DNA of 64,000 nt, from the NCBI GenBank assembly GCA_000182565.2, contig KQ257455.1. One strand, 5' to 3'. The notes below the pieces were generated by a model. That model had not been told where the DNA came from, ran no database searches, and worked only from the letters and a program-made list of their open reading frames with translations. Each line of letters starts with the position of its first letter. The first letter of the stretch is position 1. The DNA is from Spizellomyces punctatus DAOM BR117. Lineage: Eukaryota. Made by a program: the position numbers and the translations under genes. This document shows, piece after piece, positions 14,710 to 55,200 of the stretch.

Positions 14710-17288
14710 TCACCTTTTACGCCGCCTACCATCGCCGCTTCTGGAGCGGACATGTTTTCTATGGCGGGAGCCAGATCGAAATCTACTCTTTACCCGTCTC
14801 CTTTTGCGGCCCTCGCTACTACGATCTCTTCTGTTCGATGAGCCACGGCGTTTATGAACCTTGCGCTCGCGGTTGTAACGAGATCTAGCTCGCGACCTTG
14901 ACCTCGATCGTGAGCGTGACCTTGACCTCCACCGTGAGCGTGACCTTGACCTAGAGCTGCTACTAGACCTAGACCGCGATTCTGAGGACAGACTATACCG
15001 CCTTGATCGAGACAGCGACGACTCCCTCTCGCGCAATCTCGGTCGACGATCCTGCCGACTACAAACATTTCACTATTGATTAAAACGGAGTCGAGATATT
15101 AAAGTTCAGCACACCTACCTATGGCGGGACGGCGATCTTGCTTCAACTGAAGAGGATTGCGACCGCGTTCGCTTCACAGACGGCGAGCGAGATCTTTCGC
15201 GTCTTGTCTGAATCGCTTCTGACCCTGAAAGTGTGTCGGATAGTATACGAATCTCGGATGTGGAGACCACCGACCTACGCATTTACTGTGAGCACATTCA
15301 CACAAAAAAGTCAAACTGCCAAAGTTACTCACGTCGCTTGGTTGGAAGTACTTCCTTCTTTGCGGGACTTCATTTCGCGAAATGCGCTTTGCCGGTCGAG
15401 TTGTTGGAGGCGCTCTTCTTCCACCTTCTTGTGCTGTTTGACTTCATCAGCCCGAACTATTGGAATCGCCGAGTAACATGCATGAAAAGTAAGAGGTCGG
15501 AATATCAGCTGAAAGTGCCTGAAAGCACAGGTGTACACTGATATGCCACCAGTGCTCCCGCTTCCTGAGCATGCGTAAGAAGACACACTGGAAACGATAT
15601 CTGACTTTGCTTTTCCAGTGCCATTTGCGCCTTTTGTTTAAGCCGCTCGAGAGGGGTAAGCTTCTTTTTTGCTACCGTCTGTGGTTTACCGTTCTCCGCC
15701 TGCCTGGCGGAAATAGACGAAGATGACGAGGCTATTGACGGTGAACGGTAAGCAATCTCCGAATCATCTTCCAATCGACTACTTGCAAGCGCAAAAACAC
15801 ACGTTAATACAAGTTTTGCGCAGTGCTGCGCCGAGTACATACCTATAGGATCTGGGGGATCGCGTGTGATTTCCTCCATTATCCTCGGGTTCGACACTTT
15901 CACAGGCAAACTCTGTAATGAACTCGATTGAGTCTTCGCCTTCTCCAATTTCTGGTTCCCGGTTGCGTTCTGGAATAGCAATATCGCTGAAGAGACGAAA
16001 AACGTTAATGGGCCACTATGCATGCAAAACATAAACTTCTGACAGTGCACACCTTGCATACGGTGCATAAGTCGGACTTGCTCGCCGGTTATAGACCGCG
16101 GGTCGTGATATTGGTTCATGAGTTGTAGTGCGTCTTTCCTTGCTCCTCTGCCGTTTTCCACGAGCCCGCTTTCGTTGATTGTGTAGCTATGATTGTAAAC
16201 TTCTCAGAACTCTGGACTATCAGATGCTCCAGTCCAACTCACCCGCAATCCAGCCTCCTCATCTGCGCGATGTGCCTCCTGCTCCTTTTTAACCAGGCGC
16301 ATCCTATAGTAGTAATCATCAATTCCATATGGTTCCGCGATCTGATTTAGGACAGCAATGTCGGCATCTTCTAATTCTTCAATGTTGCTCAAAAGATCTT
16401 CCTGCTGGAGCAGAGGCGTTTCCTGCGGCTCATCGGCTACTCGACCCTCCTCATACGTATATCCAATAGAAGCGCCAGCGGATGGGGTACATGAAGAACC
16501 CTGCTGCTTGTCTTGCTTCGGGTCTCCCCGTTGTTTTGTCAACAGATCGTTCCATTCTTCATCAATACGATCCAGAACAGAACTTTCAACCCCTAATAGT
16601 AGCAGTGTGAGAGGCATTCTGTACCGGATGACAGTCGTGAAACCTACTCTCTAGCCTGTCACTTTCCACTAGATCCCTGTACCGCTCAAAGTTGAGTTCT
16701 TCCACCAGTTCGTCATCTTCAGCAGGTTCTATTGGCTGGCCCGGATTAACAGTCGGGACAAAGTCCAGAAGCCCGCGTCCATCGAATCTAGGAGTCCAGT
16801 CAATAAAACTTCATTGGGTTTGAACTGAAGATCTCACAAACCTGTCAATGCGCGCTTCTTCATCCCCCTGCCATTTCAATCTACAAACAATTAGTTGGTA
16901 CAGGACATGTGTAGTTGGTACAGGACATGTGTTTTCTGACCAACAAGTAGCTTACAAGTTATCCTGATTTTCATGATAATAGAATTGTTGCGCGTCCGGG
17001 TACAGTTTGCCTGGCATCGAGAGTTATCTCATTGGCACCCTAGGTATAAACCTCACCTCCGACAAGGTACTTACAGGATGTCCCAGTGACGCGAAGTAGC
17101 TGTGAGGGATCGACGAGCTTCGACTTGTAGTACTTTGCTCTCCGCTCCGCTCTAGCTTTGTGATCAACCATAACCGCATTCACCTTTCGCTCATGTTGCC
17201 TCTAGAATAGGTAGCCGATTTCAGTTGCCCCCGAGAAGAACTAAAAAAAGCAGCTGGAAATGCCCTCACGTACAGCAGCATGCCACAT
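14710..17288 (-). CDS. CLASRP: CLK4-associating SR-rich protein (SWAP/DRY_EERY N-terminus, C-terminal RS domain)
   Basis: MWHAA-RQHERKVNAVMVDHKARAERRAKYY..WQGDEEARIDRFDGRGLLDF, ELNFERYRDLV, KLTPLERLK and RSRS repeats at 14880-15010. Confidence 0.85.
16892..16931. repeat. Perfect 20-bp tandem duplication inside a CLASRP intron
   Basis: TAGTTGGTACAGGACATGTG occurs twice in tandem. Confidence 0.9.
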
Positions 17289-17419
17289 TCTTCTATGTTT
17301 TTGCTCACACCTTGATATATGGGGAGAGGAAGGTAAACAAACGCATCGACGTGAAGGCAGCCTTTAAATGACATTCACGTGCCTCAGCACGATCAGACCC
17401 ATCCTCCGTTCAATGACTT

Positions 17420-17945
17420 TCCGCTTGTTAGTGTAGAGGTGACAGAAAATGGCACTAGCTACTACACCAGGGAATAAACCGGCGACAACCGGTTCGGAAA
17501 AGCTATCTAACTACTACTAGGCAATTATACACGCAATACGTAACGGTTGGTTCTAACCGGATAATTGCCCACCACCACACGGTCCCTACTAGGCCTTGAT
17601 CCAGAACTCTTGATGGCATTGAAGCCAGAGTCTTCGCAATATTGGGGAGACTCGCAAGCTGGAGGATCTTCAGTGACAAGGCTTGGAGACTAAAGCTGCA
17701 TGTCAGCGACAGAATGACAGAATGAAAAGAGATGATGCCATTGGTACATACCAACCAAGCTCAACTAATGTGGCAGCATAATAGTAGGTTTTGTTATCAG
17801 ATCTGATTGGTTGCAGCTGGTTCTGATCACGGTTGCTGTCGGGCGGACGAGGTCCTCGACACCACCACATCTGTATTCTCATGATTAGACTGACAGTCGC
17901 GATGAGAAGAGTTGCACAGATGCTTTGAGAGTCGAGGAACTGGTG
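17420..17945 (-). ncRNA. Candidate spliced, structured Pol II non-coding RNA (alternatively a small ORF or a long CLASRP leader)
   Basis: Minus-strand TATAAAA at 17975-17981, then a CT-rich tract, a canonical 56-nt intron 17696-17751 (GTATGT..GCTGAC..CAG) and at least ten nested inverted repeats. Confidence 0.45.
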
Positions 17946-18183
17946 AGGAAGGGGAGAGAGAGCAAAGGCCCCCCTTTTATAGACCTTCGGCATGCGCCTC
18001 ACCGCAGTTTAAAAAAAAGTTACATTAGCATGCCACACCACTTTGAGCGATAGAGGGGGTTCTGATTATGCGATATGGTTAACCGGATTAATCCGGAAAA
18101 TAATGGGTCCTAGTGCCATTTTCAATCACCTCCACACTATGCTTTATGCGGTTATTCATGAGATAACGACAGTGGCCTCCGAG

Positions 18184-19548
18184 ATGCCCCCTAAAACAAA
18201 GCGAAGTAACTCTGGAACCCCGCATTCTGAAGTGAAGATCGTTGGCGAGGTGCAGGTTGACAGCAGCACCCCAACCGGTGATAAACGCAAGCTAGATGTC
18301 GTTGAGACAGTGAGCCAAGATGCAGCCACAGGAGAAGATAGAGAGGAACAAGTTAACACTCCTCGTCGAAGTATGCGGTCCAAGGTCACAGCAGTTGCCG
18401 CTTCCAAAACCTCCAGTCACGTCAACACGCCGCGCGCGAAGAGAGTAAAGTTAGATGCCCAAAGTATCGAATATCTCCTTACAAATCGAAAGTCAAAGCT
18501 AGGTAAATCTGGGTTAGATTTAAAGGTACGGAAATTGTCCTCAAAGGTTGGCTGGACGTTTTGTTTTGCTCAGTCTCTCCATTGCATTCTCAAGAAAATA
18601 TTCAGCTTTGAAGTTTTTCAAATGCTTTCGCCAGAAGATCAGGACGAATTGACACAGCTGGTGCCGAGCGTAGATCGTGCGAATGCTAGAGGGATTCACG
18701 ATCCACCATTGACGGAGAGATTCTTCAAATACAGTACGCATTTGCGTGAAAGTATTGGAGTATTTCAAGACATGCTAGCAGGTGGATTTTATGAGCCAGC
18801 TGGACAGGAACAAATGGTGCAGGAAGTCGAAGATACCAAAAAAGACTACGACAGCTGGAAGGTAAAACAGTGTGCGCGACTTACCCTCGGGCTGCGATAA
18901 ACAAAAAAGTGCCCAGGAACAAAATTACGAAGAAGTATGGGGCGACCATTTGGATCAAGAAGTTAGCGAAGAAATTGCCAGGTAGGCTGAGCGATGACAT
19001 ACCTCTAGCTGTGCTTGCATACCAGCATTTTCTCGGTTTACAGCATCGCGAAAACCATCACCTTGAAGGAAATGTGCGAACAGGATATTCTGCGGAGTGG
19101 TGACGAGTTTGTTTATAAGCGAAGTTTCGGAAAGATTGGGGTTACTGTTGAAAAGGCGGTGAAGGTAATCTCCTTACAATGATCTGTCATGAAATAATCG
19201 ACCTTCCCCAGGGTATTTAATTGTTCCATCTGTTAGATTATTTCAGTTGATGGAACCCTTCGGGTTCAAAGCGGGAACGCAACTTGGGCTGATATTGAGG
19301 CTCCCACACGACTGGAAACATTGATTCTCGACCAGGACAAGCGCGTGAGCAAAAACAAACGACCAAACGGGAATGCTTGGAAGGTAAACCATGGCTCGGA
19401 AATCTGTGGAACTGTACCGCATCTTAGCTGATTATGATTGCCGTTACCGCAGAGCATAAGATTGCGACGAAATGGAAAGGATATGGGAAAACTATCTGAG
19501 ATGAGGAATGATCTTGCAATCAGCGGATATGGAAAGGGTATATCATGA
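18184..19548 (+). CDS. Asx-homology (DEUBAD) domain protein with a C-terminal RAMA-like domain
   Basis: EYLLTNRKSKL..DLKKIFSFEVFQMLSPEDQDELTQLVPSVD..FQDMLAGG..YEEVWG fits DEUBAD. C-terminus ITLKEMCEQDILRSGD..APTRLE..PNGNAWKSIRLRRNGKDMGKLSEMR. Confidence 0.7.
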
Positions 19549-19638
19549 AAGATGCGATATGGTCCCCATCAGATTGCTCTGCGAACTGGGCTAGATACTG
19601 CGCTTGATTCATCCCACCCACCGAGTGGAACATGTAAT

Positions 19639-20207
19639 TTATTTTTTTGGATTTAAATGGCCACATTCTTTGCAGGTTCGCAACTCCTCGCTGGCATAAT
19701 ACCGCTCAATGACGGGTTTGAGTTGCGTCCCTAGGTCAACGCAATGAAAGGATTCCTCATACACAATTTTTTTACAATTCTCACAATACCAACGCAACCG
19801 GTCTTAAGGGATGACATGTAAGAGAGCTTACCACACAGATGAATCGATTCGAACTTACCCAAAGCGTCTGGTGGCCGCTTCCTTTCGATAACTATACCCA
19901 CAGTATCAGCGAACCGGACAGGGTTATGTGGAGTGTTTCCGGGAAGCAGAAACATTTCACCCTCTCGTATGGGAATATCCTTGAATTCCCCGTCGTCGAC
20001 AACTTTCAACAGCATGTCCCCTTTGTGCTGATAGAACCATTCTTCTGTTTCATTCCAGTGATAGTCTGTCCTAGCATTCGGTCCACCAACAACCATAACG
20101 GTGAAGTCTGCCGAGTTGTAGAGGCAGAAATTGTTAACGGGAGGTTGTAGAAGATGGTGGTTTTCCTCAAGCCATTTGGGAAAATTTATCGGAGGCAAGA
20201 GTGGCAT
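19639..20207 (-). CDS. BNA1: 3-hydroxyanthranilate 3,4-dioxygenase
   Basis: [69 protein letters not shown]. One intron. Confidence 0.97.
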
Positions 20208-20270
20208 CTTGTTGGAATGCTGGAGAAAAGTTTAGACAGAGGTTGCAACCTCATCAATGATCGCGGAGGC

Positions 20271-20279
20271 ATGACTCAT
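20271..20279. promoter_or_regulatory. Perfect Gcn4/AP-1 site upstream of BNA1
   Basis: ATGACTCAT about 64 bp upstream of the BNA1 ATG. Confidence 0.4.
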
Positions 20280-20451
20280 CACACGGTTGTTATGACCGGT
20301 TGCTAACAGATGAATTCAAGGTTTTGGTCCCACTTACCTTATCGGAGACCTGTGGCAATGCGTTCGGTTCTCCACATGGACCGAAACCTTCGCGTAACGC
20401 AGATATTTCAGGATACTCCGAAAGTAATATTCTTGCAATAACAAGGGAGAA

Positions 20452-22228
20452 ATGCAGTCCGCAACCGATGCCGACGAAGAGCTCACTGCATTTGGCGACT
20501 CGGACAAGACGTCAGAGGACCTACGGTCCCCGCGAAGAGCACAGTCGTTCAAGGTCCGCGCCTTTGCGGCTCTTGCTTTCGGTAATGTTTTGCTCATTTT
20601 CCAATGATCAATAGAAGCCACGAGTGCCAGTTAAACGCCGCAGTGTGCGAGGTATGCGGAAACTACAGATACCGCCAGATGAGGACGAGCTCGATTACGA
20701 TACGGATAGCGCGCTTATCTCACCGAACGCGGGACGCTTCCCAACTGCGACAAGCTCGTCCCCACCCGCAATACAGAGAAGTGCGACTATTGGAAGCTTA
20801 CAATATCTACGAGGCGTGGAACGGGAGCTCGAGCAGACTAGAAATGAAAGGAGAAAGGTACATCATAGGTGCCGAGGTCGGTATTTTCATTGAGATGCTA
20901 ATGCGGTGAGTGTCCGTAGCTGGAAAATGCGCTAAAGGAGTCGGAGTCCGTCGCGAATTCATACGCAGAGGACGCTGAGCGATGGAAGAAGGTCCGCATT
21001 CCTGTTAGAGTTGGAAGTAAGGAAACCCGAACTGTCTATACTTATGATCCATTTCATACAGAAATATCGGGACGCGGACGACGATTTGACTCGTTTGCGA
21101 GAGCAGCAAGATACACAGGAGCTCCGGATTCAACAGCTGCAGGAGATGGTTGATGTACTTCGGCGACAAGTGACACAAGCTGATAAGGACAAGGCTGTGT
21201 TGCGCTCTGAAGCGAACATAGCTGTCACAGCATTGTCCAAGATGAAGGGTGAGCGTTCAGAAACAGAACGGCAGCTTTCCACCCAACTTTCCACTGCAAA
21301 TGCCGCGAACACCGCATTAAGAGGTCATATCCATCTAAGCATGACAACCTTGATGAAAAAACCTAACATCCGCTCCTAAAACGTATGCAGCGGAACTCAA
21401 AGAAACTGAATCTCTGTTTCAAGCCGCCAAGGTGGAATATGAACTGGCGACACGCACATACGAGACAACCCAGCGGGCCCATCTCGTCATGATCAAGACG
21501 CTGGAAAAAGAGCTGCAGGAGGTGGGACATCAGCTGACGCTCTTTAAGGATTTGTGAATGTGCAAGAATCATAATCGCTGTTTCACCTTAGACCCGCCAG
21601 CGTACGCTCGACCATGGCGCGATCCAGCAACTTGTCCGTCGTTCGAGCCTGGAACTGTTGAAAAGAACCGATCGTTTGCACGAGCGATTTGAAAGCGGGA
21701 CAGCCTCTTCCACAACTGATATCACTGATCAGCTACTGTTGCAGCTAGCCGAGCAAAACAGGGCACTTCAAGAAGAGATTGAAATGCTGAGGGCTACGGA
21801 CGTCGCATTGCCGAGTGAGAATAATCTTAATGGTGAGGGGCCCCAGGATCGACCACCCTCACCTATAAAAGGCGTTGCTTTTATGGCGTCTCCACCAGCT
21901 AGTCCTGGTCATCCTCCTGCAGTTACGAAGAAAGGCCCGAGAATTCCAAGAAGAACCTCAAGCGTGTGCGAATTATTGGCTGTTAAAACCGCCAAGACTG
22001 CAAGGACAGAAGATGGGATGAAATCAAAAATGGGCACATTAGCGGCCGAGTTAGCTCACCCACAAACTCCAAATGACGGAGAAGTAGAACGTGAGTCTCT
22101 CTTGCATGTTTGGCAAAGCCCTCAGCCCTCTTGGTGACCGTTTTCAACCGTTAGGCCTTCGGCAAGAGAATATGGCGCTAGTCAGCTATCTGGTGGCAAC
22201 ATTAGATTCCCTCAGTAAGATTCAATAA
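20452..22228 (+). CDS. Uncharacterised multi-exon coiled-coil protein
   Basis: ORFs 20624-20893, 21011-21379 and 21658-22137 join through GT-AG introns; heptad-rich; ends RLRQENMALVSYLVATLDSLSKIQ*. Confidence 0.6.
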
Positions 22229-52216: not shown

Positions 52217-55200
52217 TCAAGCCGCTGTTTTTGTCGCTGGCAAATGAGGTGATAGACCAGGATGTCCGGAACCAATGACAGGTGTTGGACCGTTCTCCTT
52301 GTCGCTCGGATTGGCGCTATCAGTATTCGGTGGCACCCCTTGGATGACCGTTGACGTCGTTGGCGTGCCAGGAACAGAGGTGCCTGCTTTCGCAAGCTGG
52401 TGCAGTTGGGCCGGAGAGTTGGCTACGCCTGATGTGTTGTCCGTACCTTGACTGGCGGACTGGGCAGCGCTCATTGACGTGTTATAGGCAATCCCGTTGA
52501 TCCCTGCGATACCATTGGCAGCAGGCACGCCGTTGATTCCTGCATCTGAGACCGTTGGCAGAGCACCGGCTGCCACCGCCTTGAGTTTTTGCTGATTCAA
52601 AAGATGCTGTTGAAGGCTGATGGACCCGGGCGATAGATGGCTTTGTTGTTGTTGCTGTTGCTGGTGTTGTTGCTGCTGCTGGGCCAAGTATGCTTGAACC
52701 TGAGCAGGGGTAAGCTGTGTATTCTGAATCGCTCCGAGGGTGGCTTGATTAAGCCCTCCCATCCTGAGACTCGTTTGCATTGCCACTTGGGCTCTGGCTT
52801 GCTGTTGAATAGTGATGGGACTCATTGGACTGTTCAGATGTTGATAGTAAAAGAGCTGCTGCGCGGTGAAGCCGTTGGGAGTGGGTGATATAAGTCCGGG
52901 AGTGAGGTTGGACGCCTGTTGTTGCTGTTGCTGTGGCTGCTGTTGAGTCTGCTGTAGTGCTGGCTGTTGTTGGGTTTGCTGTTGTTGGCGTTGCTGCTGT
53001 TGCTGCTGCGCGATCTGTTGCTGCTGAAGTAGGCGGTATTGTTGTTGCAGGCGCAGCTGCTGCTGCAGGTGCTGCTGCTTGGCCTGGTTGTTGAGAACTG
53101 CGGCATTGAGGTTGTTTGCGACAACCTGTTGTACAGTCGTCCCTTGCATACCGGGATGATTTGCCAAGGATACCGATCCTTGACCCATCATGTTTGTACC
53201 GGTGGCAAATGACGTGGCGAGCCTTGGTGACGGAGAGGCCTGCACATTTGTCGCCGCTGTAACAGAGGTAGTCGGAGCCATCAAAGGCGTTCCCATATTA
53301 CCATTTGGTAAGCTCGTGGCACTCGGAATCGGGGAAACGGTGGAAGCGGACACGGTTGACGCGGCAAGCCCTACGGCTGCGCTGGAAGGCACCGGTGTTC
53401 CGCCATTGGCCGATGCCATGTGCATCTGCTGTTGCTGTTGAGCAAGCGCGGCCTGCTGGGCGGCTTGTATTTGCGCGTAATGCTGTTGTGTTTGCTGCGC
53501 TTGGCGTTGAGCTTGCTGCATCATGGCTTTAATGATCGTTTGCTTGGGATCCAACTGTTCTTGCGCTTTCTTCTTCTGTGCGTTGACACTTGGCGGCTTC
53601 GCCGCTGGATCACCGACCTTAGTGAGCCGCTTCTTGGCCAGTCCATTTACGCCCATTGCACCAACAGCGGAGCCTGGCAACGGTACAGACTGAGTTCGTA
53701 CGACTTGAGGTGGTGGTGGTGGTACTTCCTCAGCACGCTGTGCAGCTGTAAGCGGTTGTGGTGCAATTTGCTTTGGGTGCGCGGGTCGATTCATCAGAGA
53801 AAGAATCTCATCTTCTCCCTTCGGGCCAATGTTAAATACCCGATATGCAATTGCGCTACAGTTGGTCGTTAGAAAAATACAGACTAAGCCGTTGACAAAA
53901 AGCCTGTTCTGAAACAAACCTTGCACTATCATCCAGATCCACGACAGACTCTTCATCAACTTCATCGTCGCTATTGTCAAATCGCCAACGTTGGGCAGAA
54001 GCTCCCAAGGCTTCAACCTCGGCGACCAGTTGCTGTAGTTTCCGATGTCGAAGACGAACACCCATTGGAAGCGTCTTCCCACCTGCATGGGACATCCACG
54101 CCTTCTGCTTCACATGTCGATCCAGTAAAATGCGCCCGCCTCTCCCCAAACGTCGTCGACCATATGCTACCCGGATGCAACTTTCTTCTTCATCTGAGGA
54201 GGCATCGCTGTGGAAAAGTAATGCTTGCAGATCGCGCCGCCAGTAACGTGCCGCTTGACTTCTTCGTGGTGGACGGTATGGGTTCTATGGAGAGCGTGAT
54301 CTAATGGTCAGCACATTTTCCTCAGTCAAGAGATCCACGAATATCGCATCATTACCTCTGTGATATCCGCCCATCCTTGACCCTCTTCCACCACCTTTTT
54401 TCGGCGAGCTTTTCCTTCAGGTGTTGACGAATCATAGTCGGCACCAGACTCATGCAGCTTACTTTCGATGGCCTGCACCATTTGCGCAGCTGACCTGATA
54501 GCGGCCGGAGGTATCCGTATCTTCTTGACAGGTTCGTCTCTGCAAAACGATCATATAAACGTGAGTTTGGAGAATTCGCCTAGCTGGCTCTGTATATCCC
54601 CACATACCGAGAGTCAACCCCCTTCAGCTTTTTACGACGCACGTCCGGACTGACATCGCTTTCCTTCTCGGATGTTACAATACCAAGTTTCTTTTTGAGT
54701 CGTCGAACAAGAACTCTTTGTTCGAATATCAAATGCTCCAGTACGATGCTCTCCTTCCTGGCCGCTTCCCGATTTGTGATCATCTCGAGAATTTGCTTGG
54801 CCCGGTTCATTTCGTCTCGAAGACGACGAAGTTTTTCCAGAGAATGGGTGTCCGTCCGTCGCGGTCGTCGAAGAGTCTTGACTTCTCGTCGCCTAAAGCA
54901 GACGTACGGGTCATTGTCTGGTTTCAACAACCAATCTTCAGAAAGCTGCGTGTATATGCAATTGAGTATTCCACCAAGCCATTTCGCTTCAATAACACAA
55001 AGATTGCTACCTTTAGCTTTGGTTGGACTGCTTGCCCGCCCCGCACAACATAGCGGCGATGTCTCCAATGTGGATATACCGCAGAGATAGCTGCTGTTTG
55101 TGCCATTAGACTCGGCTCCTCCCGGCTAATGAAGCGTTGGCACTCTTCCAACGTCGGTGGCTCGCCAGACACCTGTTTGCGATAAATGAATTCAGTATAC

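Follow-up and report, generated by a model that had tools for sequence, protein, structure and literature searches.

The DNA examined here is a stretch of 64,000 nucleotides (nt) from contig KQ257455.1 of Spizellomyces punctatus DAOM BR117 (assembly GCA_000182565.2), hereafter called the window; all coordinates are positions in it. A 1-kb spacer separates two divergent genes. The DRY_EERY (CLASRP/SWAP-type) gene lies on the minus strand and its ATG is near 17170; the ATG of the plus-strand ASXH/DEUBAD gene is at 18184. Most of this shared promoter region is filled by an inserted mobile element, most probably a 'ghost Spu-1' element, the nuclease-less relative of the Fanzor element SPu-1. The left end of the insertion is 45 nt from the ASXH/DEUBAD ATG and its right end is 259 nt from the DRY_EERY ATG. 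The first-pass annotation of the spacer, which had proposed a structured RNA polymerase II (Pol II) transcript of an unrecognised class, overlooked both the inverted repeats that bound the element and its multi-copy status.

The element is oriented on the minus strand, with its left (5′) end at 18139 and its right (3′) end at 17429, and measures 711 bp from repeat to repeat. Self-comparison of the DNA revealed terminal inverted repeats of 30 nt each that match at 27 of 30 positions, a match that none of 100 shuffled sequences yielded. A CA dinucleotide directly precedes the 5′ repeat and forms, together with the first TA of that repeat, the tetranucleotide CATA, which is the same as the published target-adjacent motif (TAM) of SpuFz1. 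The 711-bp unit has TA at both termini. An 8-bp target duplication of the hAT type, or any other duplication, was ruled out, as the flanks are not repeated and the TA reading alone fits. The 651 nt between the repeats hold no long reading frame, the longest stop-to-stop frames being 101 and 85 amino acids (aa). No Pfam family was found above threshold in the pieces of open reading frame (ORF) of the element; the sole match, to NinE, was sub-threshold (E 0.13). Within the 64-kb window, no second copy of the element, of its repeat, of the RNA scaffold described below or of its guide was found.

Outside the window the element is repeated many times. In the DNA-like contig set X1, contig depth was ∼12–446 over 17404–18140 (∼12–198 over 17471–18073) vs 2–3 in the flanks, and five contigs part from one another at 18141. 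The element is thus multi-copy, and from the ratio of depths the copies would number in the tens. Reads of the RNA run X7, which was chosen because its species label matched, were mapped on 16600–18600 (60-nt reads, ∼6% of the run, depth in 67-nt bins) and give a family-wide signal: 31,413 reads aligned at an identity of at least 99%, 55,512 at 95–99% and 59,409 at 90–95%, with many polymorphic positions and indels. Many of them depart from the window copy at 17503, 17546, 17549 and 17634. Relatives are also present among annotated proteins of the same strain. The ORF in the first exon of the transcript matches the 105-aa 'uncharacterized protein SPPG_08830' (88% identity over exon 1), which as a query in turn retrieved SPPG_09412 (80 aa, 90%); no mention of either protein was found in the literature searched. 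The two paralogues, P0003 and P0004, have the exon junction in common with the window copy. A degenerate pattern of the repeat was also compared with metagenomes; the one contig returned (L001) is AT-rich and bacterial-looking, and was set aside as a chance match.

The element is the source of an abundant RNA. In X7, 146,334 of 26.39 million reads (0.55%) map to the 2-kb stretch, nearly all of them inside the element and nearly all in one orientation. The minus-strand TATA box and the CT-rich tract that comes after it, both pointed out in the first-pass annotation, are present, and sense depth rises just downstream of the box, from 9 in bin 17940–18006 to 1,189 in bin 17873–17939; it lies between 880 and 40,546 across 17404–17939. 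The predicted splicing of the transcript was borne out, with a different acceptor. A joint from 17689 to 17752, which skips 62 nt with GT..AG ends on the minus strand, is carried by 923 sense X7 reads and by one X9 contig. These ends fix the strand of the RNA, and since the intron is retained in the X1 contigs, the joint is a product of splicing, not a variant of the DNA. The 56-nt intron first proposed (17696–17751) is not among the joints listed in X7 at a threshold of three reads. The acceptor in use lies 6 nt downstream of the proposed one; the first AG sits only 6 nt beyond the branch-like CTGAC, and the skipping of an AG so close to the branch motif fits what is generally known of splicing. 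The segments GCTTGG (17760) and CCAAGC (17686), said to bracket the splice junction, were located as described, as were the two occurrences of a 10-mer, which start at 17869 and 17579. The product is a spliced RNA of ∼450 nt driven by an internal TATA promoter, presumably by Pol II. Exon 1 includes an interrupted 5′ hairpin and an ATG at 17882. Both flanking genes were at depth 0 in X7 over 16600–18600. This is not read as silence: a 3′-biased library, or one mostly from another organism, could give the same result. The coordinates of the features are collected in Table 1.

Table 1. Features of the element, in window coordinates; all lie on the minus strand.
Feature	Start	End	Strand	Basis or remark
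Whole element, probable ghost Spu-1 type	17429	18139	−	inverted repeats, contig depth and contig divergence at 18141
CA dinucleotide	18140	18141	−	directly upstream of the 5′ repeat
Left (5′) inverted repeat, 30 nt	18110	18139	−	27/30 match to the right repeat
TATA box, TATAAAA	17975	17981	−	sequence; rise of sense RNA depth just downstream
Exon 1	17752	17940	−	depth and splice joint; 5′ end approximate, at 67-nt bin resolution
Spliceosomal intron, 62 nt	17690	17751	−	GTATGT donor, CTGAC branch-like motif, TTTAG acceptor
Exon 2 upstream of the scaffold	17503	17689	−	variable among copies, no fold signal
Spliced ORF, 105 codons	17503	17882	−	true splice site; probably no conserved coding sequence
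Putative omegaRNA scaffold, 74 nt	17429	17502	−	fold and match to named SpuFz1 nucleotides
Right (3′) inverted repeat, 30 nt	17429	17458	−	self-comparison
Predicted guide, 15 nt	17414	17428	−	published 14–15-nt extension past the scaffold

Some RNA was also seen outside the main transcript, or joined in other ways. Plus-strand RNA occurs at 17940–18006 (depth 171), inside the element and upstream of the main transcript start, and minus-strand RNA at 18007–18140, in the region of the left repeat (depth 49–223); these signals could stem from divergent or antisense transcription, or be read-in from other copies of the element. In ten reads, 56 nt are skipped at 17542–17599 with non-canonical AC..TG ends, and joints between opposite strands cluster in 17491–17634. 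The former are probably a deletion variant present in some copies, and the latter, probably, hairpin-driven artefacts of the library.

The 3′ end of the transcript resembles the omegaRNA scaffold of the Fanzor1 nuclease SpuFz1. On the minus strand it contains stem-loop 1 (17495–17476, 8 bp), a 6-nt linker (17475–17470) and a long stem 2 (17469–17429), which carries a 3-nt bulge and includes the right inverted repeat. This architecture is identical in the minimum-energy and centroid folds, and none of 200 shuffles was as stable (z −3.71). It agrees with the published description of the SpuFz1 omegaRNA as two stems joined by a 6-nt linker, the ghost type having a 3-nt bulge (Saito et al., 2023; PMC10432273). 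When 17502 is taken as nucleotide 1, 15 of the 18 nucleotides named for the SpuFz1 omegaRNA in the text of that paper match 17502–17429, namely U5, C6, C7, U16–G20, A29, C32, C34, U35, G37, A72 and A75, nucleotide 75 being the last base of the repeat; this comparison covers the text-named positions and allows one 1-nt deletion after nucleotide 20, and is not a direct alignment. Variation among copies also respects the fold. In about one third of the reads, a G–C pair at 17490/17481 is replaced by A–U and a C>U change at 17491 gives a U–G pair, so that all pairs of stem 1 are kept; the changes at 17481, 17490 and 17491 look linked.

Directly abutting the end of the scaffold is the predicted guide (17414–17428), which is locus-specific and unique in the window, and into which sense read-through is low (depth 12.8). 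In a fold of 17414–17502 on the minus strand, 7–8 nt at the start of the scaffold are paired with some of the predicted guide, which could be chance; predicted stem-loops that contain flanking sequence are mentioned in the text of PMC10432273.

These features argue with good confidence that 17429–18139 on the minus strand is a 'ghost Spu-1' element, a non-autonomous inverted-repeat relative of SPu-1 (SpuFz1) that has no nuclease gene and has kept the omegaRNA scaffold. The text of Saito et al. (2023; PMC10432273) counts 134 ghost Spu-1 elements in S. punctatus next to 42 SpuFz1 (Fanzor) loci. The ghosts have 30-nt inverted repeats with a conserved CA before the 5′ repeat, an interior of ∼550 nt that is conserved, and no Fz ORF. 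In the same account, a 75-nt region at the 3′ repeat of the ghosts resembles the omegaRNA, the flank provides a guide of 14–15 nt and the TAM is CATA; transformation of the species has been reported in work cited there. A small RNA of 88–90 nt that includes such a guide would be expected of a ghost locus. A 2026 paper gives 126 unique ghost scaffolds of 74–76 nt (PMC13434818), and ghost scaffolds from four other loci, and later from several more, guide SpuFz1 in human cells (PMC10432273; PMC13434818). The element shares with this family the 30-nt repeats, the CA, the lack of an Fz ORF, the many copies, the 74–76-nt form of the scaffold and a locus-specific flank in the guide position, and the window copy is probably among the 134 catalogued loci. 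The family has been known since 2023, and as one more copy of it the locus opens no new class. The structured, spliced RNA of the first-pass annotation stands as a transcript, and is abundant and probably non-coding; in place of an unrecognised class it is assigned to a probable ghost element of a known family, its 3′ end being a Fanzor1 omegaRNA scaffold. The main texts of the two ghost papers (PMC10432273 and PMC13434818), figures and supplements not counted, contain neither the word intron nor TATA nor Pol II, and mention no internal TATA box, no intron of 62 nt and no abundant spliced RNA of ∼450 nt.

Comparison with other systems places the element more closely. Canonical SPu-1 is described as bounded by terminal inverted repeats, with putative duplication of TA (Bao and Jurka, 2013; PMC3627910). 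The element has these in common with it, as it does the CATA junction and most of the named scaffold nucleotides. SPu-1 differs in its length of ∼2.1 kb and its nuclease ORF of 633–638 aa, and the distal stem 2 of the element departs from it at C40 and G70. Both nucleotides are in the part that is stated to differ in ghost elements, whose repeats also differ from the Fz repeats at seven positions (text of PMC10432273). No Fz-like ORF was found among the five ORFs of at least 450 aa in the window, three of which were scanned against Pfam and only one, the single ORF of Fz-like size (623 aa), against the PDB; this ATG-started ORF (52217–54088, minus strand) was considered as a Fanzor gene and rejected: it matched no Pfam family, and the PDB yielded no relative at E ≤ 0.001. 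Like Stowaway-like or Tc1-mariner-type miniature inverted-repeat transposable elements, the element is short, has no transposase, and has terminal inverted repeats that end in TA or are flanked by it; unlike them, it has its own promoter, an intron and the scaffold of a nuclease guide RNA. In the bacterial TnpB omegaRNA systems and the nuclease-less derivatives of IS200/IS605, the scaffold lies at the right end, flanking DNA provides the guide and the TAM adjoins the left end. All three features recur here, but the element is eukaryotic and has inverted repeats and a spliced, TATA-driven transcript, and the SpuFz1 omegaRNA is described as having no TnpB pseudoknot (PMC10432273).

Several points weigh against the assignment, or against reading too much into the RNA data. 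Membership of the ghost family rests on the features described and not on direct alignment to published ghost or Fz loci, and the interior is 651 nt where 'around 550 nt' was published. Three of the 18 named scaffold positions (G22, C40 and G70) are mismatched and a 1-nt indel is needed; shuffled sequences given a free register and an indel reach 14 of 18 at best in 200 trials. The antisense strand of the spliced RNA folds as strongly as the sense strand (z −3.55), so the fold signal is not strand-specific, and the variants in exon 1 (6 synonymous, 4 non-synonymous) give a weak coding-like signal. The X7 data, from a run picked by its label and used at ∼6%, cannot resolve a mature RNA of 88–90 nt, its ends, a cap or poly(A); sharp starts or ends of reads were not among the features reported. 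The last bin, 17404–17470, has a depth of 6,241, below the bins upstream. Most reads derive from other copies, and the activity of the window copy is represented by the reads of at least 99% identity and the read-through of depth 12.8 alone.

If the element is a ghost Spu-1 element, the following mechanism can be proposed. The internal TATA promoter drives the abundant spliced RNA of ∼450 nt, whose last 74 nt form the scaffold; a transcript that carries on past the right end would gain a guide of 14–15 nt (17428–17414) peculiar to the locus. SpuFz1, supplied from elsewhere in the genome, would bind this RNA and cleave DNA in which CATA precedes the guide sequence. Such a target would be the empty insertion site, which reads CA, then TA, then the flank. 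The long spliced RNA would be a precursor of the omegaRNA, and the scaffold of the window copy would be in use by SpuFz1. By analogy with TnpB, the cutting of empty sites may favour retention of the ghost. We tentatively suggest, as a possibility somewhat short of probable, that ghost elements are self-contained Pol II guide-RNA genes and not simply leftovers of deletion, with the TATA promoter, structured 5′ exon and intron of their conserved interior as an expression module that presents the scaffold at the 3′ end of a very abundant spliced precursor, and that they rather than the Fz loci supply most of the omegaRNA pool and of the guide repertoire. Both this promoter–intron arrangement and the abundance that the spliced RNA reaches may be undescribed, given the absence of the words intron, TATA and Pol II noted above.

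It is rather unlikely, though worth weighing, that the element is of the ghost type and nevertheless inert, its RNA then being the usual transcript of a transposon, with no loading into Fanzor of the scaffold that this copy or its subfamily carries. Processing and loading of the RNA rest on inference here, three named scaffold positions differ, and ghost scaffolds farther from the canonical one edit less well (PMC13434818). Saito et al. found neither a transposase within the Spu-1 repeats nor a matching one in the genome, and leave the role of the ghosts open in their discussion (PMC10432273). Against an inert scaffold stand the full match at U16–G20, the nucleotides of stem-loop 1 that contact the protein, and at U5–C7, the preserved pairing of stem 1 among the variants in the reads, and the activity of ghost scaffolds from four loci, and later several more.

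Whether the RNA is instead an mRNA for a small protein of ∼105 aa, like the annotated SPPG_08830, depends on how the ORF behaves among copies. An ORF of about 108 codons created by splicing had been predicted from 17882 to 17503; it is present, and with the true intron is 105 codons long. It begins with an ATG ∼60 nt from the transcript start, stays open through the true splice site and has two paralogues annotated as proteins. In exon 1, tblastn of P0003 and P0004 against the window copy gave one common frame, the protein identity among copies is 88–90%, and synonymous variants outnumber non-synonymous ones. Exon 2 behaves differently. There the window copy, P0003 and P0004 use three different frames, and P0004 terminates early. 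Indels that match these frame changes are seen in the X7 reads (28% have −1 at 17549, 21% have +2 at 17575 and 27% have +2 at 17579), and 1 of the 10 substitutions is synonymous and 9 are non-synonymous, where the expected synonymous share is 23–33%; both substitution tallies are of the best-supported variants, with 33 others outside them. No Pfam family was found above threshold for P0003 and P0004, and the one PDB search made, with P0003, gave only weak unrelated matches (E 0.03 and 0.3) and no nuclease. The exon-2 peptide matched no protein of 33–107 aa in 5.8 billion clusters, and the ATG lies within a predicted hairpin arm. Because the reading frame changes between copies, the ORF is probably non-coding: beyond the first 44 codons there is no coding behaviour, exon 1 retaining a weak, unproven hint of it. 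A small-protein gene, which the first-pass annotation had kept as a possibility, is accordingly improbable.

An exhaustive search of cluster representatives with the 85-aa exon-2 frame returned three matches (E 3e-5 to 5e-5), each made of 4–10 short stretches. The FAST_1/RAP, DUF842 and RING proteins matched have repeat-rich and unrelated architectures, and some of the matching residues are intron-encoded; the matches were judged to be driven by composition and repeats. The weak likeness of 17506–17760 (minus strand), that is the exon-2 frame with intron residues, to a ∼38-aa repeat unit of a FAST_1/RAP-domain protein (E 3e-5 over 7 stretches) is probably compositional; alternatively, the interior of the ghost could derive from a captured gene fragment.

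The folding data bear on a further alternative, that of a new class of structured Pol II non-coding RNA with a function unrelated to Fanzor. All nine stems proposed for the transcript are fully complementary when G–U pairs are counted, and the comparison with shuffles upheld the overall stability: none of 100 shuffles was as stable as the 455-nt spliced RNA (z −3.05), which also lies beyond all of 16 random control stretches of the window (mean +0.32, minimum −2.07). As first recognised from motifs, no resemblance to U1–U6, the signal recognition particle (SRP) RNA or RNase P/MRP was apparent; an Rfam scan of 15000–21000 on both strands at E ≤ 1 gave no match on 17400–18140 to any family, small nuclear RNA, SRP, RNase P/MRP and telomerase RNA included, the one match of the scan being a sub-threshold hammerhead at 15981–16092. 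The dense pairing described for the RNA holds in the aggregate and fails in part of it. Exon 1 folds weakly (z −1.82), and exon 2 upstream of the scaffold (17689–17503), where a multibranch domain and a three-way junction had been drawn, folds no better than shuffles (z −0.18). The aggregate base-pairing is real and is driven mainly by the omegaRNA scaffold. Although the omegaRNA does not explain the 5′ hairpin of exon 1, a new class is very improbable: the fold signal is confined in this way and equally stable in antisense, and the RNA comes from a mobile unit that is bounded by repeats, occurs in many copies and agrees with a family already described. That the transcript is a 5′ leader or upstream-ORF exon of the CLASRP-like gene, which is on the same strand and downstream of the element, is most improbable, as sense depth past the right end declines from 12.8 (17337–17403) through 2.8 and 0.3 to 0 by 17202, before the ATG, and is 0 over the first CLASRP-like exons, no splice joint leads from the element to the gene, and a mobile repeat of this kind stands next to many different flanks.

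The identification of the locus as a probable ghost Spu-1 element explains the 'hypothetical proteins' SPPG_08830 and SPPG_09412 as frame-unstable ORFs within ghost Fanzor elements. It also suggests a native source of Fanzor guide RNA, in the form of a TATA-driven, intron-containing and very abundant transcript of a nuclease-less element. If confirmed, this would bear on the purpose of the ghost loci, an open question in Saito et al. (2023), and on the natural biogenesis of the omegaRNA, which the editing literature sidesteps by the use of U6 promoters.

Two minor features lie on the DRY_EERY side of the spacer. A tandem duplication of ∼20 nt is present at 16895–16940 (minus strand), within the second intron of the CLASRP-like gene. 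Opposite the same gene, 15981–16092 on the plus strand matches the type I hammerhead ribozyme below threshold (E 0.28; 20.6 bits, the gathering score being 34). Stem II of this match has an insertion of 66 nt, and the match is probably due to chance.

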